A stretch of 17,611 bases of DNA. It comes from an uncultured archaeon (GTDB lineage: Archaea > Asgardarchaeota > Heimdallarchaeia > Heimdallarchaeales > Heimdallarchaeaceae). A model generated the notes under the pieces. It was not told the origin of the DNA, did not search any database, and was given only the letters and a program-made list of their open reading frames with translations. Every line of letters starts with the position of its first letter. Positions within the stretch are counted from its first letter, which is position 1. Made by a program: the position numbers and the translations under genes. The DNA is taken from NCBI GenBank assembly GCA_964534625.1, contig CAZHRF010000052.1, positions 1 through 17,611 on the forward strand. Direction: 5' to 3'. This document shows, piece by piece, positions 1,022 to 17,400 of the stretch.

Positions 1022-2782
1022 ATGGGAGTAGTATCTGAAGAGCTGAAATGGACATGGCAATATCTCTGGAGGTATCCTCTTATGAGCTCAATTACTATTA
1101 TTTTTAGCGTTATTGAAATTGTTCTTTTTAGTATGCCATCTTTATATATTGCAAAAATAGTGGATCTTTTTCTTACTAATTCTCCAACAAGTGAAGTTTT
1201 AATCTGGTTAGGGTATATGCTTGGTACTAGTATATTACAAAGCGGAGTGTTTTATTTGGTAGCTTCTATCAATGAAATTTTGGCTCATAGAGTGACTACA
1301 GATATGACAGCTGACCTGTTTACTTCATTACAAGAACGCCCCTTATATTATCACGACCAAGTCAGAATAGGCGATGTTATGGCAAGGGCAACGGGAGACA
1401 CCAGAACCATTAATATAGGCTTAAGCCCTGCCTTTAGAATCCTGTGGCAAATTTTTGCTGCATTTATTTTTATTGCTAGTGTTTTAATACATATAAACTG
1501 GAAACTCACTATGATTTTAATCATAGCAGCCCCAATCTTTTTATTTACCGTTTATCGTTATGGAATAAGACTTGAACCTTTGAATAAGCAAGTCCAAGAT
1601 CGTTTTGGTGATTTAAGCATTTACACAGCTGAAAGTATAGCTGGAATTAGAGAACTTAAATCGTATACTTCGGAAGATCTGGTTAATGAAAAATTCAGCA
1701 ATGTATCAAAACATCATGCTTCTGCTATTAAAAAAGAAGCTTCATCAGCTGCCATATATATTCCAGGAATTATTATGGCGGTAACCTTAGCTCTAACGAC
1801 CTTATTTGGTGTCTATTTAATTCTTCAAGGCGAATTAACAATTTCAGGATTAGTAGCATTTACTGGGTTATTATCCATGCTTTTATTCATCGCCCGTAGA
1901 ATAGGGTGGGTAGCTCAATTTGCAGCAAGAACCAATGCTGCAGCGAGAAGATTACGAAATATGCTTTTTGTTGACATACAACCAATTGAAGAAGGAACAA
2001 AAATCTTTACTGGGAAAGACACCACTATAGAATTTAATGACGTATGGTTTTCCTACATGAATAATGGCGTATGGGCACTTAAAGGAGTTAATTTAACAAT
2101 TAATCACGGAGAAACAATAGCCATTGTGGGCGGACCAGGAGCAGGGAAAAGCACAATTAATAAAATGATTTTACATCTCTATGAACCTAATAAGGGAGAA
2201 GTAAGAATAGGGGGCGAAGCATTACACAATTATAATAACGATTCAGTAAGAAAGAGAATTTCTTCAATCGAGCAAGATATTTTTCTCTTTTCCGAGTCTA
2301 TTCGCAAAAACATTGCTTTTGGTAATCCATCCATAAGTGATGAAGAAATCACCAAGGCGGCTAAGATTGCAAAAGCTCATGAATTTATAATAGAAACAGA
2401 AAACGGATATGATACACAAATAGGCGAGCGAGGTGTGCGCTTATCAGGAGGTCAAAAACAACGTATAGCTATTGCTCGAGCTCTAATTATGGACCCTGCC
2501 ATTTTAATTATGGATGATGCAAGTAGTGCACTTGATGCTGAAACAGAAATGAAAATTCAAGAAGCGATTAGTGGTGTACTAAAAACACGAACATCTATTA
2601 TAACTACTCATCGCCTTTCTATTATTGCGGAAGCAGATAGAGTGTTACTCCTTGAGAAAGGGAGGGTAATAGCTGATGGACCTCATGAACGATTGATCAA
2701 AACTGAACCCGAATACAGAAAATTGTTTGAAGGGCATTACCATTTACCTCCAATGGAACCAATCCAGAAGGTGAAAAAATGA
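1022..2782 (+). CDS. ABC exporter, fused TMD-NBD half transporter (MdlA/TM287-like subunit)
   Basis: About six hydrophobic helices, then Walker A GGPGAGKST, signature LSGGQKQR, Walker B ILIMDD (catalytic Glu replaced by Asp), D-loop SALD and H-switch THR. Confidence 0.95.
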   Translation: MGVVSEELKWTWQYLWRYPLMSSITIIFSVIEIVLFSMPSLYIAKIVDLFLTNSPTSEVLIWLGYMLGTSILQSGVFYLVASINEILAHRVTTDMTADLFTSLQERPLYYHDQVRIGDVMARATGDTRTINIGLSPAFRILWQIFAAFIFIASVLIHINWKLTMILIIAAPIFLFTVYRYGIRLEPLNKQVQDRFGDLSIYTAESIAGIRELKSYTSEDLVNEKFSNVSKHHASAIKKEASSAAIYIPGIIMAVTLALTTLFGVYLILQGELTISGLVAFTGLLSMLLFIARRIGWVAQFAARTNAAARRLRNMLFVDIQPIEEGTKIFTGKDTTIEFNDVWFSYMNNGVWALKGVNLTINHGETIAIVGGPGAGKSTINKMILHLYEPNKGEVRIGGEALHNYNNDSVRKRISSIEQDIFLFSESIRKNIAFGNPSISDEEITKAAKIAKAHEFIIETENGYDTQIGERGVRLSGGQKQRIAIARALIMDPAILIMDDASSALDAETEMKIQEAISGVLKTRTSIITTHRLSIIAEADRVLLLEKGRVIADGPHERLIKTEPEYRKLFEGHYHLPPMEPIQKVKK

Positions 2783-4584
2783 ACAAAAAAGAAGAAAAGA
2801 TAGCTCTCATGGGTGAAGAAAGATTATGGAACCAATTGTGGCTATGGTTAAAACCTGATCTACCGCTGTTATTGGTTCTTGCTTTTGTAATTATTATTAA
2901 CTTATCCTTGTCAATAACAGGTCCAATTTATCTAAAACAAGCTATAGAGTTGATTGATCAAAATAAAGATAATTTTGGCTCTATTGAAAGACAAGCTCTT
3001 ATCTTTGCCGGGATATTTGCATTGGCCCTGGTTTTATCCTTTTTAACAACAATTATTCAAGATTTGCTTGTAGCAAAGGTTAATCCTAGATTCATTAATC
3101 GCTTACGACAAGATGCCTTTAGAAAGATTATCAATAACAAAATAAGTTTTTTTGACAAAGCTGAAGCTGGGCGTATAACAAGCAGAGTAATAAATGATTC
3201 TAATGAACTCCTTGATTCAGCTCGCCGATTTGCGGATGCGTTTTCTCAACTCATTGTTTTAATTGGTGTTCTTGTTGTAATGTTCATCTACAGTCCCATA
3301 ATAACTTTGGGAGCACTAAGTATCGCTCCTATTTTGTTTATTACAGTTGTTGCCATGCGTAAATGGAGAAGAAGAATAGCCAAAAAATGGCGAAGTAAAA
3401 TCTCTAGTGTAAATTCAAGATTTGCAGAAGTGATGGGGGCAATTGAAATTAGTAAAGCGTTCGGCAGGGAAGATGAAAACTATAATGAATTCCATGAATT
3501 AAACGAAGAAACCTATCAAGCAGCTAAGATTCGTGGTTTAGCTATCTTTTCTGTTTCTCCAATTCAAGATTTCTTGCGTAATTTGGGTATCATTGTCATG
3601 CTATATGTGGCAGCTCTACGTGTTGATGTTATTGGTATTTCAGTAGTCTATCTGTTTATTGTTCTGCAAAGATATTTGTATGACCCTATAACGGCTATAG
3701 CGCGGAGCTATAATAGATTTCAATCTTCGTTTGCTGCTATGGAACGTATTTTGGAGATCATGGCTGATAAAGAAACAAGTGAATTTACCAAAGGAAATAT
3801 AATCGCATCTGATCTTAAAGGTGAAATAGTTTTTGACAATCTCACGTTTGCTTATGAAAATGAAGAGTACGTTCTTAAAGATATTAATTTCAAAACTAAT
3901 CCAGGTGAAGTTACGGCCATTGTAGGTCATACAGGAGCGGGTAAAACTACTGTTGTTGCTCTTCTTAGCCGTTTTTATGATTATCAAGAAGGGAAGGGGA
4001 AAATATACATTGACGGAAAAGAAATTACAGAATATGATTTGAAAAGTTTAAGACGAAGTATTGGCTATGTAGCCCAAGATGTTTTACTATTTAGCGGTAC
4101 AATTCGGGAGAACTTACAGATAGCAAAAAAAGATGCAACAGATGAGGAACTTTGGTCAACTTTAGAACAAGTTCAAGCAAAAGAGTTCATAGAAACTTTA
4201 CCTGAAGGATTAGACACAGAGATTCAAGAAGGCGGGAAGAACCTATCAAAAGGTCAAAAACAGATGTTATCTTTAGCACGAGCCTTACTTTCTGATCCCA
4301 AAATCCTTGTATTAGACGAGTTTACTGCGTCTTTAGATATGTATACAGAGGCTAAAATCCAAGATGCTATTCAAAAACTACTTGAAAAAAGGACAAGTAT
4401 TGTAATTGCCCATAGACTAACAACTATTCTAAAGGCGGATAATATCATAGTGCTAGAAAATGGTAGGTTAATAGAAAAAGGTACGCACTCTGAATTGCTA
4501 TCTAAAGAGGGTAGCTATGCAAAAATCTACAAAAAATACTTTTCTTTCCAATTGGTAGGCTTAACGCCTATTAGTAAAACATGA
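2779..4584 (+). CDS. ABC exporter, fused TMD-NBD half transporter (MdlB/TM288-like subunit)
   Basis: TM domain plus Walker A GHTGAGKTT, variant signature LSKGQKQM, canonical Walker B LVLDE and H-switch AHR. ATGA overlap (2779-2782) with the upstream gene. Confidence 0.95.
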   Translation: MNKKEEKIALMGEERLWNQLWLWLKPDLPLLLVLAFVIIINLSLSITGPIYLKQAIELIDQNKDNFGSIERQALIFAGIFALALVLSFLTTIIQDLLVAKVNPRFINRLRQDAFRKIINNKISFFDKAEAGRITSRVINDSNELLDSARRFADAFSQLIVLIGVLVVMFIYSPIITLGALSIAPILFITVVAMRKWRRRIAKKWRSKISSVNSRFAEVMGAIEISKAFGREDENYNEFHELNEETYQAAKIRGLAIFSVSPIQDFLRNLGIIVMLYVAALRVDVIGISVVYLFIVLQRYLYDPITAIARSYNRFQSSFAAMERILEIMADKETSEFTKGNIIASDLKGEIVFDNLTFAYENEEYVLKDINFKTNPGEVTAIVGHTGAGKTTVVALLSRFYDYQEGKGKIYIDGKEITEYDLKSLRRSIGYVAQDVLLFSGTIRENLQIAKKDATDEELWSTLEQVQAKEFIETLPEGLDTEIQEGGKNLSKGQKQMLSLARALLSDPKILVLDEFTASLDMYTEAKIQDAIQKLLEKRTSIVIAHRLTTILKADNIIVLENGRLIEKGTHSELLSKEGSYAKIYKKYFSFQLVGLTPISKT

Positions 4585-4634
4585 AAGAGGGTAAACTTAC
4601 ATGTTTCCAATAGTGAGGAGGAATTTAGAGATAC

Positions 4635-4982
4635 TCAGCAAGTAAGATGGAAAGCTCCAAAAACTCCTTCTTTTTTTTCTACTAGATCATTATAAGTTTT
4701 AACTGCTTCAGTTGTGTTTTTGACTATTACTTCAATATTTTTTGTACGGAGTTCTTCTATAAGCTGCTCAGGTACTTTCATTCTATTATTTGCCCCTGTA
4801 CCTATAACTAATATTTCAGGATCATGCCTAAAAACAAAATCCAAATCTTCCATGTGAAGTTTGTGGCCCTCTTCACGCCACCAATTGGGCTTAATTTCTG
4901 TTTTGCTTATTATAACATCCTTGGAATAGTGCTGTCCATTTATTTTTATGGTACCAAAAGAATAATCTTCGACAATATACAT
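4635..4982 (-). CDS. Mth938-like domain protein (DUF498/AAMDC family)
   Basis: YSFGTIKINGQHYSKDVII, PEILVIGTG, TTEAVKTYN and C-terminal AFHLTC are family-typical. ATG at 4982 is preferred over TTG at 4994. Confidence 0.88.
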   Translation of the reverse strand: MYIVEDYSFGTIKINGQHYSKDVIISKTEIKPNWWREEGHKLHMEDLDFVFRHDPEILVIGTGANNRMKVPEQLIEELRTKNIEVIVKNTTEAVKTYNDLVEKKEGVFGAFHLTC

Positions 4983-5176
4983 TTTTAATCTCAAGTATAC
5001 AAGCAGCTGTTGTATTCTTAATTTTTGGGATTAATCGCCCTTTAAACCTTGATTTAAACATTTCTTCACTAAATCTATTTCTTCCCTTGAAATTCGTAAT
5101 AGAATTGTATCCATTAACGATTGTTAAATAATATCAGCAGTATAATAACTGATACTTATTCTTGAATTTGACATTC

Positions 5177-6403
5177 TTAGATTGGTCTACTTTTGTCATA
5201 CTTTCTATACTCAAGATTCTCATCTAAATGAATACAAATCTCTCTTACTGAGTCAACACAATTATGAGTAGGAAAAATATCAACTGTGAGTGATCCGAAT
5301 CCTTTGGATATCATAATTCCCCGCTCAAACAATTTTTCGTTTTGAAAACCCACATCCAACATTGAATCGCGAAGAATTCGCCCACATATATCACATTTGT
5401 AACTAATTTCTTTTTCTAATTGAACATGTTCAAATTGCTTTAAACCTTGATTTTGAATGAATCTCACCAAAGAATCTTTTATTTTCATTTTTGCTTCATG
5501 AAGGATGTCTTCTGCTTTGAAAACATTTGAAACTTTAGTGGCTATTTCTTCAAATTGATCATTTTGGATACTTAAATCTCGTTCTTTACCAAATCCAATA
5601 ATGGTCACAAGATTATTACCTATATCTTTCATAAAAGAAATACTGTTATCAAAAACAAAGGCTGCATGATCTAAATTATATGTTGAATCAAATACCTTAC
5701 TCAAATCACTCCTTAATTTATCGTAATTTAAGCCACTTCTTTCAACTGGTTGGCTGTAAAGAATCAAACCTTGAGTTGTTGCAATAGCTAATGTTTTTAA
5801 GTTGTAATTTTGCCATATCTCTTTGATACTAATTTCTTTATCAGTATCTCTTGGATATGCATAAGAGATTACATTTTGTAAGGCATCAAAAAGCGTATCT
5901 TCAAATATTGATGTACCAAAAATTTCTACGTCATCGTGATTATGTGTTTCAAAAATGCCATCTATTGATTCTATAATTTCCTCTCTCTTTGTTATTGGAA
6001 CTGTATCCATTTTATGCACAAAAACGAATATTTTAGCATCATTACTATATTTTCTTACATAATCAATACTTAGATCAAAATAATACTTAGATCGCATTAT
6101 ATTTGAGGCATCAGATACATCAACTACAAAGATAACAGCTTTAGTATTGCTAAAGGTTCTTTCTTGTAATTCAGAAAAAACCTCATTTATATAATTAGAC
6201 TGTCCTCCAATATCATGAATATTAATTGAACTTCCTGCAACTTCAAAGAGTTTTCTGTTTACTCTCACTGTAGCAGGATTGAGTTTGGTTGATTTAGGTG
6301 CTACACCTTCAAAAGCAACTTGTTTAATAGACGTTTTACCAGATTCTGCCAATCCCAAAAATATTATTTTCGCTTGATTAATATCCCTTTTACCACCGAT
6401 CAT
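5177..6403 (-). CDS. Rag/Gtr1-like small GTPase with roadblock-like domain and C-terminal putative Zn-binding domain
   Basis: G1 GLAESGKTS, G2 PATVRV, G3 DIGGQ, G4 HKMD (His-type, as in RagA/Gtr1), G5 region TSIFEDTL. Roadblock-like LAIATTQGLILYS at ~aa 200. C-terminal CDIC...HNC. Confidence 0.85.
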   Translation of the reverse strand: MIGGKRDINQAKIIFLGLAESGKTSIKQVAFEGVAPKSTKLNPATVRVNRKLFEVAGSSINIHDIGGQSNYINEVFSELQERTFSNTKAVIFVVDVSDASNIMRSKYYFDLSIDYVRKYSNDAKIFVFVHKMDTVPITKREEIIESIDGIFETHNHDDVEIFGTSIFEDTLFDALQNVISYAYPRDTDKEISIKEIWQNYNLKTLAIATTQGLILYSQPVERSGLNYDKLRSDLSKVFDSTYNLDHAAFVFDNSISFMKDIGNNLVTIIGFGKERDLSIQNDQFEEIATKVSNVFKAEDILHEAKMKIKDSLVRFIQNQGLKQFEHVQLEKEISYKCDICGRILRDSMLDVGFQNEKLFERGIMISKGFGSLTVDIFPTHNCVDSVREICIHLDENLEYRKYDKSRPI

Positions 6404-6431
6404 TTTCTCACATTTTATTAAAAATATTTTT

Positions 6432-6449
6432 CCTTTAAGACTTTTCTGC
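6432..6449 (-). promoter_or_regulatory. Possible BRE/TATA promoter of the first Rag-like GTPase
   Basis: The minus strand reads GCAGAAAAGTCTTAAAGG, ~30 nt upstream of ATG 6403. The AT-rich background weakens the call. Confidence 0.35.
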
Positions 6450-6535
6450 TGATTATTCTAAGAAAAAAAACCACAAAAAGCGTTTTACACAAAACTATTG
6501 TCAAATTTCAGATGATCTCTAAAAAAATTGTGAAT

Positions 6536-9500
6536 TTACTCCTTATTTCTTATTTCCATTTCCTCTATTTGTGCAGCCAATATAAGTTGAGTGGCCTTCT
6601 GCCGTATCACACTAATTTTACTATTAATTTCAGCTAAAGACTTTTTCTCTTGTAACATCTTACTTAATTCATCTATATCTTGATGCAGATATTTTTCCTT
6701 ACCAATAAGTAAAGTGCCATGTTGTTCTTCTGTAACCACAATAAGAGAAAGATTCTCATAACCTCCCCTAGCAGCCTTATTCCTTAATTGAAGTCCGTGA
6801 ATATATCCGATCATATCTTCATTTGGTAAACGAATAGAGCCAGTTCTACGTTTTTCGTCAAATTCTTCAAAACCTAGACTACTATATGCTTGATCACATA
6901 TCTTCAATAAGAAATTATCAACACCTATAGCCATTCGACGGGCAAATTGATCCGATTCAAAAGAGTAATCACCTAAAAGTGGTGTTGGACCTTTTCTCTG
7001 ATCAAATATCGAGAGAATAACACCAGGAATTAACTGGACAATATTTTGTTTAATATCCTCTTCTGTTATTTCTTCAAGTATTTCTTCAAAAGATTTCGGA
7101 CGAGTAACTTTGTAAACTATAAAAGATATAATAATCATTAACAAAACACTTCCTGCAACGATTATTACAATTATTTCTGGAGGTATTCCTCCTTCGGATG
7201 GAACAGCTAAAACAGGTTCTTCCAATAAGAATGACACTACATCCAAAATATCGTTTCCTTTAAAATCAGCTGTTATTAGTAAATATGCTATTGTGTCGTT
7301 AATATCAAAATCTAATGTGGCTATACCTTGGGCATTAGTTTGTGTAATTCTTTCTAGCATTTCATCAAAACCCTCTGGAGTTGCAGCAACTGCTTGAGTA
7401 TATTCATTAAGATAAATATACAAGTAAAAATGAATATCAACAAAAGGAACAGGATCACCGTTATGATCTGTTAAATTTGCATAAACAACTAATTTATTAC
7501 CATATTCAACCGTAGTATTGGAAACATAAACGGAAAGAAAAACCGGTATAGGCTGGATTTCAACATTCATTGAAGCTATATTTTTTACTTCATCAAAATA
7601 GAATGATGATTCAATATATAGGTTGAGTGTGTAATTCCCTTTCTTTCTTGGGTATCCACTATATCTTATTAGTATAGTATTATTATCACCAAATTCTGTA
7701 TTTTCAATAACTGAAGTGCCATTAACAAATACCGCTGTTATCTCTTGAGAACTTATATTTTCAGTATCATATAATGAAACATTGATGAATATGTCTTCAC
7801 CATAAATTATATGATTTGAAATACTGTTTATATGTGCAATACCTTCTGTTCTATCAACTAAAACATCAATTTGAACAGTTTCTTTATGATCTTCAAATTG
7901 CCAAAACTGAATTTCAATTGGAGTTGGTTCACCATTTGTGATATTTGTAGCTGTAATGATAAATTCATATGTTATACTATCTAATTGTGTTGTATCTATA
8001 TCCAAATTGATTTCTTCATCTATTATATAGGTATATTTCAGACCGGTAATAGCTGTTCCTTCTTCTATGTCAGAAACACTAACAATAAAACTATATTCGT
8101 CACCATATTTCATAGAAATTGATGTGTTCTCAGGATAATTATCGGGAACAGAAATATAGTCAATCTTTAAATCATCAACGATGAAAAAATAAGTAACAGT
8201 ATAAGTGTTTGATGAAGTACTCTCCCCCGTATCATCTTGCAGTTTAATAGAAAGGATTTGTTCACCATCAAGTGATGGAATATCGATATAATTAGAACTA
8301 TTTAATAACTGTAGAATGCCATTATTCCATGAATATTCAAAACTCTCCAAATCATCATTAATACTGTCATTATACCAAAGAACGTAGTACCCTCTAATGT
8401 ATGAACCATTTGTAGCTGGAAAGTATTCGGATGTTTTAGTATCATAGAAATGTAATTCTAAGGTAGGAGCAGACAAATCAACAGTAAAAATATAACTGAA
8501 AATATGAGTATTTCCTACGATATCTTTTGTCGTAAATGATAGAGTTACAGGTCCCTCTTCATTGTAGAAGGCAGACAATTTTATTACTACAAAGCCATTG
8601 TCATCCAATATTGCATCTATGCTACCAGATAGATAACTCCAAGTATATTTAACTGACTCTATTGTTTCTCTTGATAAATCTTCTACTTGAAAATTCAGAT
8701 TAGTATAGTGATTTATCTTAGATTCATTAAATGGAAAAATAATAGATGTTTCAGGAGCTACACTATCGATTATTAAAGAAATATTGTATATTACTTCATT
8801 ACCCAATGTGTCATTGGCTTGAATGCTCAGTATCCCAAATCCATCCTCATAATCCAAAAAAAAACTGCTATTAAATGTTGTGTACTGAGAATTATCCCAT
8901 GAATAAGTACTATTTGCATTAGGATCATTATCAACAATATTAATATCAACTAGTGCACCATTTGGGATATAAAAATCATCATCTAGTTCAACTAAACCGT
9001 CAATAGAATTAATTGAAATTATTGGTGGAAACGTATCGATGGTAAAGTAAATGACTATTAGTCTAACATTACTAGCTTTATCAAATGCATAAAGGGTTAA
9101 ATTGTAATCTCCATCCTCTAGTCCCAAAAGATAAAAATCAAACGGTGATGAAAGAGTTTGATTTGATGAACCATCAATAGAAACGTAAACTAGTAGATCT
9201 GATTCTATAGTTAAATTGTCCGTAATTTGAAAACTGAAAATTTTTGTGTCCAAATGTCGGGAATTATTATATTCTCCACCTGGAATTATGACTGGTATTT
9301 CTTGATCTAAAGTGAATTTGAAAACAAATACATGTTCATTATTAGAAAGGTCTCCAACATAAATATAAAGATAGTGAATACAACTCGGATCTAGTGGAAG
9401 TGCATTGTTATCAGTTAAAACTAAAATGCTATTTGACATTAACGCAAAACCATCTTCAATTTCTCCATTATCCCATTGAAACTTTATTGTACCATTATAT

Positions 9501-11254
9501 CCTGTGATTGTTACATTAACATCATTCCCACCATAATAAAAGGAATCATTTTTCATCGTTGTTAACTCAACCAACAGTTCGCTTTTATCAACAAAGAACC
9601 TAAAAACAGTAATATTTTCTTGCATGAATTCATCAATAGCTTTTACAGTTAGATTATTCCATCCATCAATGTCTGGCGTATATTCAAAATAGGATGAAGT
9701 CCCTTCTTCTGCAGTCCAAGTGCGATAATTTTGATTGTCCCACTTATATTGCACAGAATATATCTCTGCTTCATCAGTAATTTCAACCTCTATAAGTTTA
9801 TTAGCTGAACATGTTGTCCCATTCAAAAGATTAACTAGCTTAATTGATGGAGCTTTCGGATCTAGGAAAAATATATAGAATTGCTCTTCATAAACAAAAG
9901 TATCATCAATATAGATAGTTAAATTACACTCTCCTTCTTCTAATGGTGCATAAATATTATGTTCTGGAACACTAAGTAAATCGAAAATAGTCCCATTATT
10001 ATTCCACTGATAAGTTACATTTGATGCTCCAGTAGAAACAGAAAAATTCAGTATTCCACCGCTTTTTATCATAGAATTATTCAATGGTTCTAGTAATACT
10101 ACGTCACTGTGAGATCCATCATAACCTATCTTATAGATATTTACTCTTCCATTATTAAACTCATCAAATGCTTTTACTTCTAGATAGTGCCAACCATCTG
10201 TCTTAGGTAAGGATGTGGTGGTTTCTGACCCCTCCCATGAGGTAAATTCATTATCATTCCATCTATATGATTGAGAGGTTGAATCTTGTATAGTGATATT
10301 TATATTCTTCTCTTCATAGTAATAAGTTTCATTTTCAGCTCCTGTGATAGAAATAGAAGGATAAGAAAGATCTTTGTATTTGATCTGCATACCAAAAACT
10401 GTACTGTAATAATCAAAATCGTAGGTATTAGTATAACCTTCGTCTGTTATCTGCCATTGATATGGACCTCTATCACTTGAATAGTTTATTTTAAGTTCAA
10501 CACTTGTAGAATCATCAGTAAGTAGAGAAACTTTTCCCATAACAGCTAGTTTCAACCTATAATTTTTAGGAATAATAACTGGATCCGATAGAATTAAAGT
10601 GAATACTTTTTTATTATTGAAAGAAAGATCATCGGGTAAAATTTCTTCAACATAAGCTATCTGAGTGGTATTTTGATCTGATGGATTGAATAATGACAAA
10701 CTAATATTGAGCGTATAAACTTGTTGATCATCTATGTCAGTATTAAAATGTGTTAAAACATGTATTTTTCCGGCTATTTCTGTATCTTCACTAAATACAG
10801 GTGTAAACATTGATGATCTTTTTCGCGTATTAGGTTCTTCAAGATAATAATAAGTATTGGTAGAACTAGGCCAACCAGTCTGCCCACCATCCATTTTATA
10901 TCTTTTATATGTTGAAGAACTTCCTTTATCATACATATCCTCGTAATTGTTAAACTCATAGACGCTTCCATCTTCATCTACATTGACAAAACTGTTATGA
11001 GCGAAAAAACCTTGTAACAAATAATCACCAGGGATAACCGTTTTTTTGATACCAGAAGAGATGAGCGTTTCTTCTTTTGTTTCATTTTTCTTGAGTTTGT
11101 CTTTGTAATTATCTTTGTAATCTATAATTTGCGTTCTATTCCTTTCCAATTTCTCTTCTAACTGATTTTCATACCTATAATCTTGATAAAAAAAATTTCC
11201 AGTAATAAGAATAATAATAATGAAACTGTTAATAATAATTTTACTGTTTTCCAT
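6536..11254 (-). CDS. Large cell-surface membrane protein: Ig-like repeats, transmembrane helix and cytoplasmic folliculin/uDENN-like longin domain
   Basis: N-terminal hydrophobic stretch (IIINSFIIIILITGNFFY), repeated beta-rich units with many N-x-S/T sequons, TM IIVIIVAGSVLLMIIISFIVY followed by basic KVTRPK, then LSIFDQRKGP and LRNKAARGGYENLSLIVV. Start set at ATG 11254 (upstream GGGGAT, avoids overlap with the upstream gene); 11290 and 11338 are alternatives. Confidence 0.85.
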   Translation of the reverse strand: MENSKIIINSFIIIILITGNFFYQDYRYENQLEEKLERNRTQIIDYKDNYKDKLKKNETKEETLISSGIKKTVIPGDYLLQGFFAHNSFVNVDEDGSVYEFNNYEDMYDKGSSSTYKRYKMDGGQTGWPSSTNTYYYLEEPNTRKRSSMFTPVFSEDTEIAGKIHVLTHFNTDIDDQQVYTLNISLSLFNPSDQNTTQIAYVEEILPDDLSFNNKKVFTLILSDPVIIPKNYRLKLAVMGKVSLLTDDSTSVELKINYSSDRGPYQWQITDEGYTNTYDFDYYSTVFGMQIKYKDLSYPSISITGAENETYYYEEKNINITIQDSTSQSYRWNDNEFTSWEGSETTTSLPKTDGWHYLEVKAFDEFNNGRVNIYKIGYDGSHSDVVLLEPLNNSMIKSGGILNFSVSTGASNVTYQWNNNGTIFDLLSVPEHNIYAPLEEGECNLTIYIDDTFVYEEQFYIFFLDPKAPSIKLVNLLNGTTCSANKLIEVEITDEAEIYSVQYKWDNQNYRTWTAEEGTSSYFEYTPDIDGWNNLTVKAIDEFMQENITVFRFFVDKSELLVELTTMKNDSFYYGGNDVNVTITGYNGTIKFQWDNGEIEDGFALMSNSILVLTDNNALPLDPSCIHYLYIYVGDLSNNEHVFVFKFTLDQEIPVIIPGGEYNNSRHLDTKIFSFQITDNLTIESDLLVYVSIDGSSNQTLSSPFDFYLLGLEDGDYNLTLYAFDKASNVRLIVIYFTIDTFPPIISINSIDGLVELDDDFYIPNGALVDINIVDNDPNANSTYSWDNSQYTTFNSSFFLDYEDGFGILSIQANDTLGNEVIYNISLIIDSVAPETSIIFPFNESKINHYTNLNFQVEDLSRETIESVKYTWSYLSGSIDAILDDNGFVVIKLSAFYNEEGPVTLSFTTKDIVGNTHIFSYIFTVDLSAPTLELHFYDTKTSEYFPATNGSYIRGYYVLWYNDSINDDLESFEYSWNNGILQLLNSSNYIDIPSLDGEQILSIKLQDDTGESTSSNTYTVTYFFIVDDLKIDYISVPDNYPENTSISMKYGDEYSFIVSVSDIEEGTAITGLKYTYIIDEEINLDIDTTQLDSITYEFIITATNITNGEPTPIEIQFWQFEDHKETVQIDVLVDRTEGIAHINSISNHIIYGEDIFINVSLYDTENISSQEITAVFVNGTSVIENTEFGDNNTILIRYSGYPRKKGNYTLNLYIESSFYFDEVKNIASMNVEIQPIPVFLSVYVSNTTVEYGNKLVVYANLTDHNGDPVPFVDIHFYLYIYLNEYTQAVAATPEGFDEMLERITQTNAQGIATLDFDINDTIAYLLITADFKGNDILDVVSFLLEEPVLAVPSEGGIPPEIIVIIVAGSVLLMIIISFIVYKVTRPKSFEEILEEITEEDIKQNIVQLIPGVILSIFDQRKGPTPLLGDYSFESDQFARRMAIGVDNFLLKICDQAYSSLGFEEFDEKRRTGSIRLPNEDMIGYIHGLQLRNKAARGGYENLSLIVVTEEQHGTLLIGKEKYLHQDIDELSKMLQEKKSLAEINSKISVIRQKATQLILAAQIEEMEIRNKE
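8170..10365 (-). repeat. About eight degenerate protein-level tandem Ig-like repeats (~85-100 aa each)
   Basis: Recurring pattern D-x-x-(A/P)-P-x-I...Y-x-W-(D/N)...(D/E)-G-x-x-x-L-x-(V/I)-x-A-x-D-x-x-(G/N)-N...F-x-(V/I)-D. Examples: DGWHYLEVKAFDEFNN, DGWNNLTVKAIDEF, DGDYNLTLYAFDKASN, DGFGILSIQANDTLGN, EGPVTLSFTTKDIVGN, DGEQILSIKLQD. Boundaries are approximate. Confidence 0.75.
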
Positions 11255-11279
11255 CTTGATCCCCAATAACCATACTATC

Positions 11280-12044
11280 TTATTTTTCATTTTCTGCCAT
11301 ATATTTGTGTAATTTAAACGATTTGAGAAAAATATCATTTATAGCTTCTTTTAATTCTTGAACTCCGTTTCCCGTTATATTTGATATTTCAACGGTTTTT
11401 ATATCTTCTAAATCAAATCTAAATCCAATCTTATCTTCGATATGATCTTGAACGAAATATCTTGCTTTTTGTATTTGACTAAATTCGACTTCAATAGCTT
11501 CTTCTCGCTCTAGATGAGTGCCTAGAATAATTATACCCGTATATTCTTGTATTAATTCTCGTTCAATAGCTCGATCTAACCAATATTCTAACTCTTGAAA
11601 TGTTTTCATATCTGTTGTATTATAAGTAAGAACAAGTGCCAAAATCGCATCCATTTTCGATACATCAAAAAATAAATCACAAGCATCTTCAAAAGCTAGC
11701 CCCTCGCCTTTCCCACCTTTCCCTTTTTGACCTGGCATGACAAAAATCTGCGAACTAATAACGATTTGATATTTCTCAATATTAGAATGAAAAACAAAAT
11801 AATTAAATTCGATATTAATAGATTTTTTTAATGAAAGGATAGTTTGCCTTGAAAATTTTACTCCTTGAATATGAGTCAGATTAAGTGCTGTATGGGTTTT
11901 ACCAGTTTGCCCATCACCAATAAAAACTACTCCCCCTGTACAAACCACATTTCTTTCTCTAAAAAGCACTAAATGTGAAATTGGCGCTTCAATATTCATT
12001 TTAATGATAGATGATTTGCCATTACCTTCGGGATTATTTTTCAT
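11280..12044 (-). CDS. Atypical Ras-superfamily small GTPase
   Basis: G1 GDGQTGKT, G3-equivalent VMPGQ (no Asp), TFQELEYWL helix, G4-equivalent GTHLE, G5 EISNITGNGVQEL. Confidence 0.8.
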   Translation of the reverse strand: MKNNPEGNGKSSIIKMNIEAPISHLVLFRERNVVCTGGVVFIGDGQTGKTHTALNLTHIQGVKFSRQTILSLKKSINIEFNYFVFHSNIEKYQIVISSQIFVMPGQKGKGGKGEGLAFEDACDLFFDVSKMDAILALVLTYNTTDMKTFQELEYWLDRAIERELIQEYTGIIILGTHLEREEAIEVEFSQIQKARYFVQDHIEDKIGFRFDLEDIKTVEISNITGNGVQELKEAINDIFLKSFKLHKYMAENEK

Positions 12045-12067
12045 ACTAATTTAAAATATGTGTTTAA

Positions 12068-12086
12068 ATGATTATAAGCGTTTAGT
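12068..12086 (-). promoter_or_regulatory. Archaeal BRE/TATA promoter for the atypical GTPase and receptor unit (probably leaderless)
   Basis: The minus strand reads AAACGCTTATAA; the TATA element ends ~28 nt before ATG 12044. Confidence 0.55.
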
Positions 12087-12284
12087 TTGGGAGAAAGAGA
12101 AATACTGAATATTCATCTATTAAAACCCAACAGCCATAAATAGATTTTAAGTATAATTTAGGCCATAACCACTTTCTTCTAGAGTAACGTGATCTTTAAC
12201 TGTGCTTTATACAGACGTTTTTTCACCAGTTTTACTTCCTATGAAAGAAAATAATAAATTTATACAATAAACCATTGCAGTTAT

Positions 12285-12340
12285 GTGAATACCTTTATAT
12301 TTGGACGAGAATTTATAGAAAATACAAAATAAGTGGTGAT
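12285..12340 (+). promoter_or_regulatory. Possible TATA box and Shine-Dalgarno site of the second Rag-like GTPase
   Basis: GTGAATACCTTTATATT at 12285-12301 and GGTGAT at 12335-12340 before ATG 12344. Confidence 0.45.
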
Positions 12341-12343
12341 GTC

Positions 12344-13834
12344 ATGTCTTATTTATATGACGAAATATATGAAAGAGATGGAAATGATAAATCATCAGAA
12401 GGTAAGAATAAAATAATAATCATGGGTTTACAAGCAGCTGGAAAAACAGCCATAAAGGAGCTTATATTTTTAGGTAAATCTCAAGAAGAAGTCGAAAATT
12501 ACATGGCCACCACACATTATACCAGACATTTTTTAGATGAAAGTAAACAAAATGTGATAATAGATTCTGGCGGTCAAGAATCTTATTTTAATGAAGCTGT
12601 AACCTATTACCGTAATCTAATCTTTTCTGATGCTAAATTATTAGTATGGGTTGTTGATATATCAAGTCCAGATTTATTTGAAGAATCAGAGAGACGATTT
12701 AGTTTTACCATTCGTCAGTTTAAGAAAAAGAATCCAGATGGGATAATATATGTATTTTGTCATAAAAGTGACCTTGTTGAAACAGAAAAAATCGCTTCTA
12801 TTGTCCAATATTTGAAAGGTTCATTACATGATCCCAAATTTGAGATTAACTTTAGAATAACATCCATTTATGATAAATTAGAATTAAATGAAACATGTAA
12901 AGAAATGTTAGTAGCTGCCAACATTCGTACAGATAACTTAGAATTAGTAACCAATGTTGAAGGAGATGAGGAAGTTTCACAGGATCAAATAAGTTTCATT
13001 GCAGAAACAGATTCTAATCAAAAAATCCAATTATTGAGTAAATTCATGGCAAAAAAACCCAGATCTCAACTTCCTACCTTTGGTAAACTTGAAGTTGATG
13101 TAGATTTAGAGGGGCGAGATATAATTGAGATTGTATTACTTGACAAAGAAAACTTTTCACCATCTCTTGGAGCTTCATCGCATAGACTAGCGGATAAAGG
13201 TAATTCAATGGATTATCTTTTAGCACTTAACTATTTCAAAAAAACTCTAAAAGAAAAGGGCAAAGATATTCCGGTGTACGAAAGCATTATAGATTCTTAT
13301 AACTCTCAAATTTGGGCATGTATCTACAATATAAAACATTACTATTTACTCATAACTTCTTTCTCTGAAATAACACAAACAAGAGGTAAAGAATTCGAAG
13401 ATTTAATCAAAGGCTTTGCAGAGATTATTAAAAAAAAGGAACAGAAAGTTTCTAAGGAAGATTTTGAGGTTAAAGAAGTAGCTAAACCAATTACAGAACC
13501 AACCAGAGAGATAAGCCAAGGACAAGATGTGAACCAATTTTTAACTCAAGAAAATATACAAGAAACACAATCAAAAGAAGAGAATATAAATGGGGAACAA
13601 TTAAAAGAAATAGAAAGAAACGCAGATGTAGAGGTTCTAAAAGCAAAATATAGAAAGTTATTAGAAGAAAGTAAAAAAAGAGAAGAGCAACAACGAACTC
13701 AATTAAAAGACGAAATACAAAGTGATAAAAAACAAGAAAAAGATTCTTTGATTACTTTCTCTTCAACTGAAATGAAACATTTGGTAAATTTCTTCATAAA
13801 AAATAAAAAGAGAGCAGAAGATGAAGAAAAATAG
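12344..13834 (+). CDS. Second Rag/Gtr-like GTPase with putative roadblock/longin-like domain and charged C-terminal tail
   Basis: G1 GLQAAGKTA, G2 YMATTHY, G3 DSGGQ, G4 HKSD, G5 region TSIYD. Start at ATG 12344, preceded by SD-like GGTGAT (12335-12340), rather than TTG 12275. Confidence 0.82.
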   Translation: MSYLYDEIYERDGNDKSSEGKNKIIIMGLQAAGKTAIKELIFLGKSQEEVENYMATTHYTRHFLDESKQNVIIDSGGQESYFNEAVTYYRNLIFSDAKLLVWVVDISSPDLFEESERRFSFTIRQFKKKNPDGIIYVFCHKSDLVETEKIASIVQYLKGSLHDPKFEINFRITSIYDKLELNETCKEMLVAANIRTDNLELVTNVEGDEEVSQDQISFIAETDSNQKIQLLSKFMAKKPRSQLPTFGKLEVDVDLEGRDIIEIVLLDKENFSPSLGASSHRLADKGNSMDYLLALNYFKKTLKEKGKDIPVYESIIDSYNSQIWACIYNIKHYYLLITSFSEITQTRGKEFEDLIKGFAEIIKKKEQKVSKEDFEVKEVAKPITEPTREISQGQDVNQFLTQENIQETQSKEENINGEQLKEIERNADVEVLKAKYRKLLEESKKREEQQRTQLKDEIQSDKKQEKDSLITFSSTEMKHLVNFFIKNKKRAEDEEK

Positions 13835-14220
13835 AGAAAAATAAATGTTAAACGCAAGATAGGAACTTTTACAAAAATCCATCTCCATTACTATGTAGAA
13901 ACATAGAATGAAGAGAGTATTACTAAAATCCAATAAAGTATCGCTATTCATATTTATTTAGTGTATTCTGTATCTATCATGATCTATAGCTAATTCTTAA
14001 AATGCTGCAAATACAGAACCAATTATAACAATAATAAGATTAGAAACAATATGATTAATTTGTTTAAATTCTAGAACCAGTTTTAAAATGCCCCATTATA
14101 CATTTTTTGGGTTTTCTGCCTTTGAGTTTTTACGACATAATTTGTGCCTTAGATATGGTTTTATAAATATAGTTTTTTGGGTTTAAATAATAGTACAATA
14201 TCTTTACACAATATTTATCA

Positions 14221-14763
14221 ATGAACAAAACCTCTAAAAATTGTATGCCAAAAGAGAAAATTGCTAAAATAATTATAGCGGGGGATGGGGCAGTAGGTAA
14301 GACTTCTATTGTCAATAGCATAATTGACAGCGATATCGAATGTAAAGATGTTAAAATGACACCTGGCATCAATATTGAAACAGCAAGATATGAACTCAAG
14401 AAAGATAAAGAAGTGGTTAACTTAACTTTTTGGGATCTAGGAGGACAAAAACAGTTTCGTTTTTTTCAGGAAGATTTTACAAAACAAACAGATATCGTAC
14501 TTTTGGTATATGACCTGTCACGGTATAAATCCTTTATAAATATTGAAAAAGAATGGGCACAAATGTTCAATTCTGGTAATAATATGCTCACGAAAAGAAT
14601 TTTAGTTGGGAACAAAGATGATCTCAAGAATAGTATAAAAGATCAAGAAATAGAAGAAATGGCTGAAAAGTTAAATGTACCGCATATTAAAGTGTCAGCT
14701 CTCGAGAACAGAAACATAGAGAAACTTTTGGAACTAATAGGATCTTATTTAGAATGTGAATAA
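14221..14763 (+). CDS. Rab/Roc-like single-domain small GTPase
   Basis: G1 GDGAVGKTS, G2 MTPGINI, G3 WDLGGQKQFR, G4 GNKDD, G5 VSA. The start could be 14245. Confidence 0.92.
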   Translation: MNKTSKNCMPKEKIAKIIIAGDGAVGKTSIVNSIIDSDIECKDVKMTPGINIETARYELKKDKEVVNLTFWDLGGQKQFRFFQEDFTKQTDIVLLVYDLSRYKSFINIEKEWAQMFNSGNNMLTKRILVGNKDDLKNSIKDQEIEEMAEKLNVPHIKVSALENRNIEKLLELIGSYLECE

Positions 14764-14901
14764 AGACAAATAATATTGCCCAACTCTATTGTCAATATCA
14801 TAAAGAAAGAAGTAATGCTAGACATACTTTTCTTTATATTTTCTCTATAAAGCACTTTTTTTTCCAATACTTGTTTATTTATAAAGTTTATTATGCCTTG
14901 T

Positions 14902-14918
14902 GCAAAAAAGTTTTAAAT
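14902..14918 (+). promoter_or_regulatory. Archaeal BRE/TATA promoter for the Zn-finger, V4R and GGR unit
   Basis: GCAAAAAAGTTTTAAAT ends ~28 nt before ATG 14946. Confidence 0.5.
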
Positions 14919-14945
14919 TGTGTTATATAATTTTTCTTGAGTTTA

Positions 14946-15407
14946 ATGAACCAGACTAAAAGTGAATATGATTTATTAATAAGCTGTCCAGTATGCAATG
15001 AGGGCGTTATGATATCTGTTGAAGATGTGAGTAGTATACGCGATGCCAAACGATATCCAGTATCGTTAACCAATGTACATGGAGATCCAAAACATGCTAT
15101 CACTTTATTTATTGATCAAGACATGAGAGTTAGAGCTGTTGAACCCTCCGACATAATTTTCGAATTAGAAGAATTAAAAGCAAATAGAACGCTAAGAGAA
15201 CGGTATATTCCTTATCCTATTGAAGGACATGTTGACTTAGGGGGGCTATCACGAGAAGAAGTGGTTATCATTTCGCTTTCTGATGGCAATCGTGATATCA
15301 CAGAGATTTGTAAAGTTCTAACTCTGAGCAAACTGAAAGGTAAGATGTTTGCTGAAAAATTAGTTCGTGACAAGAAATTAGCTAAAGTAGAGAAAAAAAT
15401 AATCTAA
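14946..15407 (+). CDS. Putative zinc-finger (CxxC...H...H) plus winged-HTH protein
   Basis: CPVC...HGDPKH...FIDQDMRVRAVE at the N-terminus. C-terminal LSREEVVIISLSDGNRDITEICKVLTLS...KLVRDKKL matches a 'DGxR' wHTH pattern. ATG 14946 lies ~28 nt after a TATA-like box. Confidence 0.65.
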   Translation: MNQTKSEYDLLISCPVCNEGVMISVEDVSSIRDAKRYPVSLTNVHGDPKHAITLFIDQDMRVRAVEPSDIIFELEELKANRTLRERYIPYPIEGHVDLGGLSREEVVIISLSDGNRDITEICKVLTLSKLKGKMFAEKLVRDKKLAKVEKKII

Positions 15408-15428
15408 AAATTGCAAATGGTGAAATAA

Positions 15429-16094
15429 ATGAATAATAATGAAGAGCCAAAAATGAAAAAAATCAATATATTTAGGCGATTTAAAAATAAGATTATTGTA
15501 ACAGGGGCCAAAGCCAAAAAGAAATGGGCAACCGAAAAAGTTGCTTCTTTCACAGTTACAAAAATGAATGAAACGCTCGTTAAAGAACTCATTCAAGCTG
15601 TTGGAGAAAAAGAAGCAATGGAAAAGATTTTTCGTGCAGCAGCTAATTTGGGGCATGAATACATGTTAGAATTATCTTCATTACTTGAAGGACATATAGA
15701 CACTATGCCTGCTTATGCTCAAGCAGCATGGTTAATGTTTTCGGGACACAAACTAGAGGCAACAAATTATCAAGAGATCCAAATTGGGGAGTATACTTGT
15801 CCAGCATTAAAATTTGTAGATCCATCTTGTCCTTGGTGCAAAAATATTTCTTTTGAGTCGCCATTCTGTACATATCCCGCGGGGGCATATAATGGTGCAG
15901 GACAAACATGGGCAGAATTAACTGATGAACCATATAATTTCTTTGTGAGAGAGCTGAAATGTAAAGCACAGGGAGCCAAACATTGTGAGTTCCTCTTTCT
16001 TGCATGCCCTAAAGACATGTCAATTGATGTGTTAAAACAAGAAAAACCCGAATGGTTTGAGTACATAGACTATGGATTTTTCTCATTTGACTAA
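15429..16094 (+). CDS. V4R (4-vinyl reductase) domain protein
   Basis: CPWC, FCTYPAGAYNG and VRELKCKAQGAKHCEF match the V4R ExxCxAxGxxxCxF signature. The start may be a later ATG. Confidence 0.85.
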   Translation: MNNNEEPKMKKINIFRRFKNKIIVTGAKAKKKWATEKVASFTVTKMNETLVKELIQAVGEKEAMEKIFRAAANLGHEYMLELSSLLEGHIDTMPAYAQAAWLMFSGHKLEATNYQEIQIGEYTCPALKFVDPSCPWCKNISFESPFCTYPAGAYNGAGQTWAELTDEPYNFFVRELKCKAQGAKHCEFLFLACPKDMSIDVLKQEKPEWFEYIDYGFFSFD

Positions 16095-16125
16095 TGCATT
16101 TTTTTCATATAGAGGATGAATAATT

Positions 16126-17400
16126 ATGAATGACAGATTATCTAACGATGTATATGATGTTATAGTGGTCGGCGGTGGACCAGCTGGTTCATCAGGTGCC
16201 TATCATGCTGCCCAAAACGGATTAAAAACAATTTTGATTGAAAAAAAGAAATTGCCTAGAGACAAACCTTGTGGAGGGGCTCTATCAGAACGAGCTCTAG
16301 ATTATCTTGGGAAACAAGCGCTTGATTCGATCAATTGTAAGGTTAAACAATTAGCCTTATTTTCGCCCTCCTTAGATTCGTTTGTGTATCAAGGTGAACC
16401 AGGATATTTTATTGTACGGGAAGTATTTGATACAGCAATGGTTAGGGATGCTGAAGCGCAAGGAGCTGAGGTTGTTGAAGAAGCAAAAGTTGTAGACATA
16501 AGTACAAATGGCTCAAATAGGTACCAAGTTACAATTGAAAAGGGAGAAGAAAAAAAAACAATTGAATCAAAGTATGTATTTTTAGCTACAGGTGTTCAAA
16601 ATAATCCACTCATAAAAAAACTAGGGATCAGAAAGAGATGGCCAGAAGGGCACCTAGCCATGTGTGTAGTGTCAGAAACACCTGTTGAAAGCAATATCTT
16701 GGATTCCCATGAAATATATTCAGACACAACTTTAGCTATTTATTTTGGGATCGTGCCTAAAGGATATGGCTGGTACTTTGTAAAGGACGGATATATCAAC
16801 ATAGGCATAGGTGCAACATGGCTAGATATCAAAGATAAGGGAGCAAAAAATGTTTATAATGAGTTTGTACAACTATTAAAAAAACAGAAACATTTACCAG
16901 AGGATATTAAACTCACCAGATCAAAATCGCACACTCTTGTATTCAAGAAGACAGCAAAAACAATTATCAAAGACAACATCTTACTCTTAGGAGATGCAGC
17001 GGGGTTTGTTTCTCCTGTAAGTGGCGAAGGCATTTATTATAGTGTTAAATCAGGATATTTAGCAGCTAAAACAGTTAAAAAAATCCTTGATAATGGAGGA
17101 AAAATAGAACCTTATGAGAAGGAAATCTATAAAGATTTTGGCAAGGATCTAAATAGAAGCGGATTATTCCTTCAGAAAACGCTATATTCACATCAAAAGA
17201 CAATGGAACTCGCGGTTAAACTAGGTAAACATGACGATAAAATGGCTAAATTAATTACGAGAATGGTATATGGCATAACTAGCTATAGAACATTTGTCTG
17301 GAGAGCACTAATAAGAGCACCCATCTCCTTGATAAAATTACTTTTTAAGAGAGGAGAAAAGAAAAAGGGAAAGGGAAAGGGAAAGGAAAAAAAAGAATAA
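16126..17400 (+). CDS. Geranylgeranyl reductase family FAD-dependent oxidoreductase
   Basis: YDVIVVGGGPAG dinucleotide fold, RDKPCGGAL, REVFD, PKGYGWYF and LLGDAAGFVSPVSGEGIYYS. SD-like GAGGATGA upstream. Confidence 0.9.
   Translation: MNDRLSNDVYDVIVVGGGPAGSSGAYHAAQNGLKTILIEKKKLPRDKPCGGALSERALDYLGKQALDSINCKVKQLALFSPSLDSFVYQGEPGYFIVREVFDTAMVRDAEAQGAEVVEEAKVVDISTNGSNRYQVTIEKGEEKKTIESKYVFLATGVQNNPLIKKLGIRKRWPEGHLAMCVVSETPVESNILDSHEIYSDTTLAIYFGIVPKGYGWYFVKDGYINIGIGATWLDIKDKGAKNVYNEFVQLLKKQKHLPEDIKLTRSKSHTLVFKKTAKTIIKDNILLLGDAAGFVSPVSGEGIYYSVKSGYLAAKTVKKILDNGGKIEPYEKEIYKDFGKDLNRSGLFLQKTLYSHQKTMELAVKLGKHDDKMAKLITRMVYGITSYRTFVWRALIRAPISLIKLLFKRGEKKKGKGKGKEKKE

Follow-up and report, generated by a model that had tools for sequence, protein, structure and literature searches.

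A receptor-like surface protein of Heimdallarchaeia with a folliculin-type longin tail, encoded in a conserved cluster with Rag-like GTPases

Introduction

Rag GTPases and the longin GTPase-activating proteins (GAPs) FLCN-FNIP and GATOR1 form the core of eukaryotic amino-acid sensing. The GAP-type longin proteins FLCN (with FNIP), NPRL2 (with NPRL3, in GATOR1) and SMCR8 (with C9orf72) are soluble, have a DENN or another domain at the C-terminal side and work as obligate heterodimers on lysosomes. Arg164 of FLCN is the catalytic finger (PMC9473554), and a GP motif beside the arginine finger is reported to mark FLCN, NPRL2, SMCR8 and C9orf72 and to be absent from FNIP2, NPRL3 and longins of the guanine-nucleotide exchange factor (GEF) type (PMC12290439). 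Here we describe a gene in a 17,611-nucleotide stretch of DNA (assembly GCA_964534625.1, contig CAZHRF010000052.1, positions 1 to 17,611, forward strand; hereafter the window) from an uncultured archaeon of the Heimdallarchaeaceae (Asgardarchaeota, class Heimdallarchaeia). The gene encodes a receptor-like surface protein whose cytoplasmic tail is a longin domain, and it is clustered with genes of Rag-like GTPases.

FLCN-like and NPRL2-like longins have been reported from Asgard archaea, together with fusions of longins to Rag GTPases and to two-component domains, and the GTPase in the FLCN-like operon described there is not of the Rag family (Liu et al., 10.1101/2020.10.19.343400). The GP motif and the arginine are both present in some soluble Asgard longins, namely in 15 soluble-looking proteins described in a study in which the word 'transmembrane' is not used (PMC12290439). 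GTPases of these archaea are generally encoded outside the operons that hold longin or roadblock genes, and the pairings are therefore hard to predict (Tran et al., PMC10933270).

Results and discussion

Topology and ectodomain of the receptor-like protein

The receptor-like protein is a single-pass, type I-like surface protein with its longin tail inside the cell, hydropathy and composition being the whole basis of this topology. Residue numbers refer to the open frame of 1600 amino acids (aa), in which tail residues 1-191 correspond to aa 1410-1600. The start was placed at M29 (position 11254), which agrees with the N-termini of 26 aligned homologues and gives no overlap with the upstream gene. 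Only two hydrophobic stretches were found in a Kyte-Doolittle scan, one at the N-terminus (aa 32-52) and a strong transmembrane (TM) segment (aa 1389-1409), which is preceded by the acidic PSEGGIPPE and followed by YKVTRPK (positive inside). The homologues also begin with a short basic n-region and a hydrophobic stretch; a lipobox at this place was considered and rejected, the Cys of some homologues being absent here and the -1 residue atypical. The 1335-aa ectodomain contains 40 N-x-S/T sequons versus an expectation of 18.4 for shuffled sequences of equal composition, and it is probably N-glycosylated; the tail contains one sequon, and neither the tail nor the cytoplasmic neighbours exceed the number expected from shuffling. 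All parts of a receptor were thus found, namely an N-terminal signal or anchor, an extracellular domain, one TM segment and a cytoplasmic effector domain, as judged by hydropathy, the positive-inside rule and the sequon excess.

The ectodomain is acidic (D+E 15.5% versus K+R 5.5%) and repeats a Y-x-W-[DN] motif every 85-100 aa. An AlphaFold2 (AF2) model of aa 186-1385, built from an alignment of 27 homologues, is all-beta with a mean predicted local distance difference test score (pLDDT) of 80.5; its predicted template modelling score (pTM) is low (0.37), as expected for a beads-on-a-string chain. The model matches arrays of Ig/FN3-like domains (GhpA, Nup210, contactin and DSCAM), and Pfam gave only weak Big_13/Big_7 matches. 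No ligand-binding domain was recognised by Pfam, by the ESM Atlas search with the ectodomain head, which returned nothing usable, or among the structural matches of the model. A preliminary description of the window had proposed an N-terminal anchor, a beta-rich and sequon-rich ectodomain and a TM helix at ~7112-7175, all of which were confirmed by hydropathy, sequon count and the AF2 model; the cytoplasmic position of the longin domain in a single-pass protein, proposed there as well, is supported by hydropathy, the positive-inside residues and the sequon excess.

These properties of the ectodomain also bear on a reading in which the protein is primarily an adhesin or a structural surface protein under inside-out control, the GTPases serving to position, cluster or traffic it. 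GhpA (a grappling hook), contactin and DSCAM are adhesion or filament proteins, the copies of 8,800-10,400 aa in the Hodarchaeales have a size typical of adhesins, and no ligand-binding domain was recognised, as said above. The ectodomain moreover evolves fast, with a mean pairwise identity of 35% versus 56% for the tail among 26 homologues from two families of the class (f1 and f7). This reading is compatible with a link between tail and GTPases and reverses the direction of control, but it leaves the catalytic-type motifs of the tail unexplained, and we consider it unlikely.

Longin fold of the cytoplasmic tail

The tail carries a domain of the FLCN/NPRL2/SMCR8 longin subtype. An AF2 model of the 191-aa tail, based on an alignment of 23 tails (A1), reached a pLDDT of 92.3 and a pTM of 0.88. 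Two short juxtamembrane helices are followed by the order b-b-a-b-b-b-a-a, which is that of longins, with a final helix of 30 residues; the elements are strands 30-37 and 41-49, helix 64-79, strands 89-95, 100-110 and 118-128, and then helices. The juxtamembrane linker SFEEILEEITEEDIKQNI is helical in the prediction. The acidic helical linker and the longin domain of the preliminary description were thus confirmed by the model, and the assignment to the FLCN/NPRL2/SMCR8 type made there is supported by the fold ranking and by the GP motif and conserved Arg described below.

In a Foldseek search of the PDB the top match was 8yqg, the longin of a Lokiarchaeota Roadblock-Longin protein (E 8e-6), followed by FLCN, NPRL2/3 (from GATOR1 and the SEA complex), DENND10, Lst4 and SMCR8/C9orf72. 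The VIA-align Z scores were 12.8 for 8yqg, 11.7 for the Lst4 longin, 11.6 for FLCN, 11.5 and 10.1 for SMCR8/C9orf72 and 10.0 for NPRL, compared with ~8 for generic longins (TRAPP, Ykt6, AP sigma) and 6-7.5 for roadblocks, which places the tail nearer to GAP-type longins by a modest margin. Two other assignments were rejected: a SNARE-like longin, as the TM segment precedes the longin here and there is no SNARE motif, and membership of the Roadblock/MglB family, given the lower structural matches and the C-terminal position of the helices.

At the sequence level, Folliculin (PF11704) was the sole recurring Pfam family, found in 13 of the 23 A1 tails with a best E of 3.6e-4 (19.9 bits versus a cut-off of 23.3), and the matches always run from b4 through the ARGG loop and b5 to a2 (tail residues ~103-160). 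The only protein above the Folliculin cut-off (24.0 bits versus 23.3) was a soluble relative from locus L055. The A1 profile gave only chance matches among PDB sequences. In the ESM Atlas the nearest clusters to the tail are short Asgard proteins, one of them with NPR2 in 19% of its members, all below 0.9, which serves as a lead only.

Conserved motifs and a candidate arginine finger

Motifs were examined in an alignment of 47 tails from four families of the class, 46 of them TM-linked. F36 and G41 of the motif FDQxxG[P/A]xP are kept in all 47 tails, position 42 being P or A, and R115 of the motif [A/S/M]-R-G-[G/K]-x-E-[N/D] is kept in 46/46 TM-linked tails and also in soluble longin-GTPase fusions. 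Judged from the topology, the b1-b2 and b4-b5 hairpins that carry these motifs would lie at the same edge of the longin sheet. In human FLCN, the L-A-R-G-F segment that contains Arg164 precedes a hydrophobic strand and resembles A-A-R-G-G-Y-E-N-L-S-L here. R115 is a candidate counterpart of FLCN R164, NPRL2 R78 and SMCR8 R147.

A longin tail could instead be a docking platform or a GEF, which, in the manner of Ragulator, TRAPP, Mon1-Ccz1 and DENN modules, would bring Rag-like GTPases to the cell membrane or activate them there, the conserved Arg being structural or used for binding. Longin/roadblock dimers indeed act mostly as GEFs or scaffolds and not as GAPs (PMC10933270), generic longins and roadblocks also match the tail model (Z 6-8), and the longin of the longin-Rag fusions in cis could be a mere dimerisation platform. 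However, the combination of a GP motif with an Arg in the neighbouring hairpin has been described as specific to GAP-type longins and absent from GEF-type ones (PMC12290439), and GAP-type longins top the structural ranking. The Arg is also invariant across deep divergence, and degenerate paralogues lose both motifs jointly. A docking or GEF role is in our view rather unlikely.

Degenerate paralogues were observed in the Hodarchaeales in two forms. In tandem arrays (L046:1874-4951 (-) and L047:11375-14398 (+)) a single-pass protein of ~1,010 aa comes third after two receptors with catalytic-type tails, and its own cytoplasmic tail is degenerate and has neither the GP motif nor the Arg (VGGGQG); by analogy, this protein may be a non-catalytic partner, as FNIP and NPRL3 are for FLCN and NPRL2. 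The other form is a soluble longin-like paralogue of 311 aa without GP motif, Arg or Pfam match (L051:8561-9496 (+) and L045:10243-11178 (-)), whose gene has the receptor gene on one side and that of a 740-aa Rag-like protein on the other; the conserved set to which these belong also encodes proteins of 1141 and 444 aa. These Arg-less TM and soluble paralogues, like the tandem receptor pairs of f1 (L014, L017 and L019), are hints of a heterodimer partner.

Linkage of the tail to Rag-family GTPase genes

The receptor gene lies in a row of three genes on the minus strand, with genes of a 254-aa and a 408-aa GTPase on its two sides; the earlier statement that it stands between two co-directional GTPase genes is therefore correct. 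The 408-aa protein has the motifs DIGGQ and HKMD, matches Pfam Gtr1_RagA with 9.6e-35 (120.5 bits versus a cut-off of 22) and finds Gtr1 (5e-24) and RagA (4e-20) in the PDB, being the best Rag match in the genome; its alignment to Gtr1 ends at residue 233. A second Rag-like protein, with DSGGQ, HKSD and a long charged C-terminus, matches Gtr1_RagA with 3.4e-23 (82.7 bits) and Gtr1 (3e-14) and RagC (5e-10) in the PDB, and is the second-best Rag match in the genome. With Pfam scores above the cut-off and an HKxD G4 motif, both neighbours are members of the Rag/Gtr family. Gtr1_RagA frames above 60 bits number only four in the genome, and the receptor gene lies between the two with the highest scores (121.6 and 85.4 bits).

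This arrangement recurs in relatives. At most f1 loci and in 5/5 f7 genomes the order is the 254-aa GTPase gene, one or two receptor genes and a Rag gene of ~570 aa in one direction, then a Rag gene of ~410 aa in the opposite direction. The 254-aa GTPase gene is directly upstream of the receptor at most f1 loci and at all five fetched f7 loci that reach upstream. The window holds a rearranged version of the cluster with all four genes still together; the second Rag-like gene is divergent here and directly 3' of the receptor in relatives. Receptor paralogues of f1 at L020, L021, L023 and L030 directly adjoin a different short Gtr1_RagA gene. In the Hodarchaeales, receptors of ~820-3,700 aa adjoin Rag genes of ~300 aa and/or ~560-745 aa (L038-L045, L051), and among the Hodarchaeales tails listed ~9/35 have a Rag gene within ~7 kb compared with ~2 expected, the loci not being mutually independent. 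In another class, a 2321-aa receptor with a Hodarchaeales-like tail lies among three Rag-like genes (L058, G105:C4:33000-50000).

Absence follows the same pattern. In four tail-less f1 genomes (G001, G007, G002 and G020) the 408-aa Rag protein and the 254-aa GTPase likewise have no orthologue; G001, which is 95% complete, keeps only a 27%-identical paralogue of the 254-aa GTPase, and G007 is a single contig. In G003 the two proteins are present only as contig-end pieces, which indicates an assembly gap. Domain fusion gives a third kind of evidence. Outside the class, the best profile matches (E 1e-12 to 1e-16) are soluble proteins with the longin domain at the N-terminus. It is followed by a Gtr1_RagA domain in proteins of 476 and 470 aa, such longin-Rag fusions being the nearest soluble relatives of the tail, and in others by a Ras domain or an ArsR/TrmB-like winged helix; in these relatives from other Asgard classes FD[DE]xxGPxP and [AK]RG[GN] are kept throughout. 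From synteny, co-absence and domain fusion we strongly infer that the tail is functionally coupled to GTPases of the Rag family. The linkage to GTPase genes that had been anticipated for such tails is thus borne out, specifically for the Rag/Gtr family.

The upstream 254-aa GTPase could be the client in place of the Rag-like proteins, in a pair like MglA-MglB. This atypical GTPase has GDGxxGKTH, an xPGQ without the G3 Asp, as in MglA, and THxD/E in place of NKxD. The strong conservation of the protein with its unusual xPGQ and THxD, the co-directional position of its gene directly before the receptor start in f1 and f7 (a distance of ~25 nt here) and the fact that three of the four tail-less genomes (G007, G002 and G020) lack both it and the receptor, with only the paralogue in G001, all suit such a role. 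It is missing, however, from the Hodarchaeales, f1 paralogue and G105 loci, where Gtr1_RagA genes alone accompany the tail, and the fusions in cis involve Rag- or Ras-type domains. The Rag family was therefore ranked as the common partner, and we regard the 254-aa protein as a quite unlikely client.

In the 254-aa GTPase of the window the motif is THLE (window 11508-11519 (-)), and all 14 aligned orthologues have TH-x-D, so that the guanine-specifying Asp is Glu here. The 408-aa protein extends past the Gtr1-aligned part, with an extra Cys/His-rich C-terminus of ~80 aa (CDICG ... HNC; window 5177-5420 (-)).

Distribution of the tail and checks of the assembly

A HMMER scan of 1.84 billion representative proteins gave only 53 clusters at E<1e-3. 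Each match is C-terminal, and wherever the match is long enough to cover the preceding stretch, one TM segment stands directly before the domain. A profile search of the class found the tail in 52/83 genomes, single-contig genomes included, with 21/30 in f1, 20/22 in f5 (Hodarchaeales, by the public names of its proteins), 9/12 in f7 and 1/2 in f6; it was not found by this search in f2, f3 and f4, families of f1's own order. At the 46 fetched TM-linked loci the TM segment (Kyte-Doolittle >2.2) precedes the domain by 20-40 residues, and the protein ends no more than 13 residues past the domain. Up to 12 copies per genome are present in the Hodarchaeales, and tail-bearing open frames range from ~870 to 10,431 aa, the shorter frames listed being mostly contig-end fragments. 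Given these copy numbers and frame lengths, one tail type serves very different ectodomains, and a family of TM-longin tails with variable ectodomains, which the preliminary description had suggested looking for, does exist. The giant Hodarchaeales frames of 8,857-10,431 aa, which end in the TM-longin tail, stand in tandem with a receptor of ~1,540 aa.

The source is a metagenome-assembled genome of 3.37 Mb in 120 contigs (89.8% complete, ~31% G+C), and its repeat-rich genes are of a kind prone to misassembly, which could point to an assembly chimera or a chance juxtaposition of a surface-protein gene and a longin gene. Against this, the same fused frame, with the TM segment 20-40 aa before the domain, recurs at 46 loci in four families, closed genomes included. 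In addition, four per-run assemblies each hold window 5100-12100 in one contig with zero differences, base for base; these may include the source sample, so that a local chimera is excluded, yet the assembly is not independently confirmed. The recurrence and the agreeing assemblies refute a misassembly at the TM junction, and its probability is negligible.

Proposed mechanism

We propose that the membrane-tethered longin tail, with its conserved Arg as finger, would act as a membrane-localised GAP for the neighbouring Rag/Gtr GTPases, and we put the probability of this reading, which argues by analogy with the eukaryotic proteins, at roughly 55%. The 408-aa RagA/Gtr1-like protein and the second Rag-like paralogue would possibly form a Rag-style pair. 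The longin tail would be held at the cytoplasmic side of the membrane and, as a homo- or heterodimer, would dock on a GTPase domain, and R115 of the ARGG loop, beside the GP hairpin, would be inserted as arginine finger. In the most speculative step, the ectodomain might set the site or the occurrence of GAP action through clustering on contact or ligand binding.

Several points weigh against this proposal. The window's own tail has no useful match in Pfam, NCBIfam or PDB sequence searches; neither PF11704 Folliculin nor PF06218 NPR2 exceeds its curated cut-off there, and the matches of its relatives are sub-threshold. No DENN domain follows the longin, the protein ending 4 residues past the domain; because of this and of the Pfam scores it is not a full-length member of the FLCN/SMCR8 family. 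The match of R115 to FLCN R164 comes from loop position, motif likeness and sub-threshold Pfam alignments and not from a residue-level superposition. No Rag gene was found within the fetched flanks of the paralogues at L022, L024, L025, L029, L031 and L046-L050, related genomes share ancestry and locus counts thus overstate independence, and the non-Rag GTPase encoded directly upstream in f1 and f7 could be the true client. To these is added the prevalence of GEFs and scaffolds among longin/roadblock dimers, as mentioned above.

A wider version of the GAP proposal can be formulated for the Heimdallarchaeia including the Hodarchaeales. It would be a true outside-in pathway, in which engagement or clustering of the receptor switches a folliculin-type longin GAP and thereby the nucleotide state of a Rag-like pair. 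The eukaryotic FLCN/GATOR1-Rag switch would be a homologue of this older pathway, with its origin at the cell surface and a later move to the lysosome. We offer it tentatively and hold it to be doubtful.

Relation to known systems

The tail shares with FLCN, NPRL2 and SMCR8 the longin fold, these proteins being among its best structural matches, the GP motif at the b1-b2 hairpin and the conserved Arg in the A-R-G loop before b5. The clients of FLCN and GATOR1 are Rag/Gtr GTPases, which are the genomic partners here, and the Arg-less Hodarchaeales paralogues stand beside catalytic-type ones as FNIP and NPRL3 do. The tail differs from these proteins in that its longin closes a single-pass surface protein, lacks a DENN domain behind it and has a Folliculin similarity below the cut-off. 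The published Asgard FLCN/NPRL2-like longins and longin-Rag fusions are of the same longin subfamily, with both motifs kept and a Gtr1_RagA domain fused in cis; they are soluble or fused to GTPase, DENN or two-component domains, whereas here the longin is tethered to the membrane under a giant ectodomain and its gene is clustered with Rag-like genes.

Plexins resemble the protein in design, being single-pass, with an Ig-like/IPT ectodomain outside, a GTPase regulator inside and control by dimerisation. This is an analogy of design only, in which the direction is for the present protein a proposed one: the intracellular part of plexins has a RasGAP fold and acts on Rap, whereas the tail has a longin fold and no homology to it. 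MglA-MglB is a prokaryotic example of a small GTPase regulated by a dimer of the roadblock/longin superfamily, and the 254-aa GTPase shares the Asp-less xPGQ G3 of MglA; MglB, however, is soluble, has a roadblock fold and provides no Arg finger, and roadblocks match the tail less well. The best structural match, 8yqg, was aligned over 143 residues with a root-mean-square deviation of 3.0 and is dimeric in the crystal; unlike the tail, it belongs to a soluble protein, in which a roadblock domain accompanies it, and the identity is 14-16%.

To our knowledge, no earlier prokaryotic receptor-like protein has a longin-type GTPase regulator as its cytoplasmic domain. All database copies that were looked up are named 'hypothetical protein', and in full-text literature searches, in which the 15 Asgard longins of PMC12290439 were not compared individually, we could not find a description of the single-pass receptor form or of its Rag linkage. 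The preliminary description had called the system undescribed; this does not hold for Asgard GAP-type longins with GP motif and Arg, which are published (PMC12290439; 10.1101/2020.10.19.343400), and it stands, relative to the literature searched, for the transmembrane receptor form and for the conserved clustering of its gene with those of Rag-like GTPases.

In the published view, the Rag/longin pairings of Asgard archaea cannot be read from genome layout (PMC10933270), and the present family offers candidates for matched pairs. Here a GAP-type longin, in the closest archaeal relatives of eukaryotes, is tied physically to the membrane and genomically to Rag-like genes, which suggests that it may represent an archaeal precursor, wired to the membrane, of the eukaryotic Rag switch. 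Two questions become testable with this family: whether the Arg-finger chemistry of longin GAPs existed before eukaryotes, and whether the ancestral Rag switch was wired to the cell surface.

Gene organisation of the window

The coordinates of the receptor-like gene, its parts and the related features are collected in Table 1. The window DNA was found in microbial-mat metagenomes (public runs).

Table 1 Features of the receptor-like gene and its GTPase neighbours in the window, with related loci in other genomes
Feature	Location	Strand	Remarks
Receptor-like gene	6536..11254	-	1572 aa from M29; open frame 6536..11338 = 1600 aa from first ATG
N-terminal signal peptide or signal anchor	11189..11254	-	MENSK + hydrophobic stretch; from hydropathy and homologues
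Ectodomain	7175..11188	-	non-repeat head, then ~12-13 Ig/FN3-like beta-sandwich domains
Single TM helix	7112..7174	-	Kyte-Doolittle peak 3.19; then KVTRPK
Juxtamembrane acidic helical linker	7031..7111	-	tail residues 1-27; AF2 helices 8-14, 17-27
Cytoplasmic FLCN/NPRL2-type longin domain + long C-terminal helix	6539..7030	-	tail residues 28-191
FDQRKGP, GP motif at b1-b2 hairpin	6986..7006	-	tail residues 36-42
ARGGYEN, b4-b5 loop, candidate arginine finger	6752..6772	-	R115 of tail = R1524
Atypical small GTPase, 254 aa	11280..12044	-	upstream of receptor, co-directional
Rag/Gtr1-like GTPase, 408 aa	5177..6403	-	downstream of receptor, co-directional; C-terminal extension
Second Rag-like GTPase, ~496 aa from M24	12344..13834	+	open frame from 12275; divergent from 254-aa GTPase gene
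Soluble longin fusions (other genomes)	L053:479-1906; L055:1538-2947; L054:591-1655; L056; L057	-; +; -;;	
Giant-frame tails (other genomes)	G066:C193:39226-40227; G061:C10:124435-125430; G065:C52:42079-43059		

Other genes of the window were also recorded. A DUF498-family gene (119 aa, window 4635-4994 (-), Pfam 1e-25) lies between the Rag gene and a pair of ABC exporter genes of the half-transporter type (586 + 601 aa, window 1022-4584 (+)). Such an exporter pair is also found within a few kb of the receptor paralogues at L022, L023, L029 and L032 in f1 genomes, and this nearness may be plain shared synteny. Further downstream, window 14221-16094 (+) encodes a canonical Ras-family GTPase of 180 aa, a 156-aa protein without Pfam match and a 221-aa protein with a sub-threshold match to V4R (TRAPPC3-related superfamily); at the other fetched loci none of these three genes adjoins the receptor.

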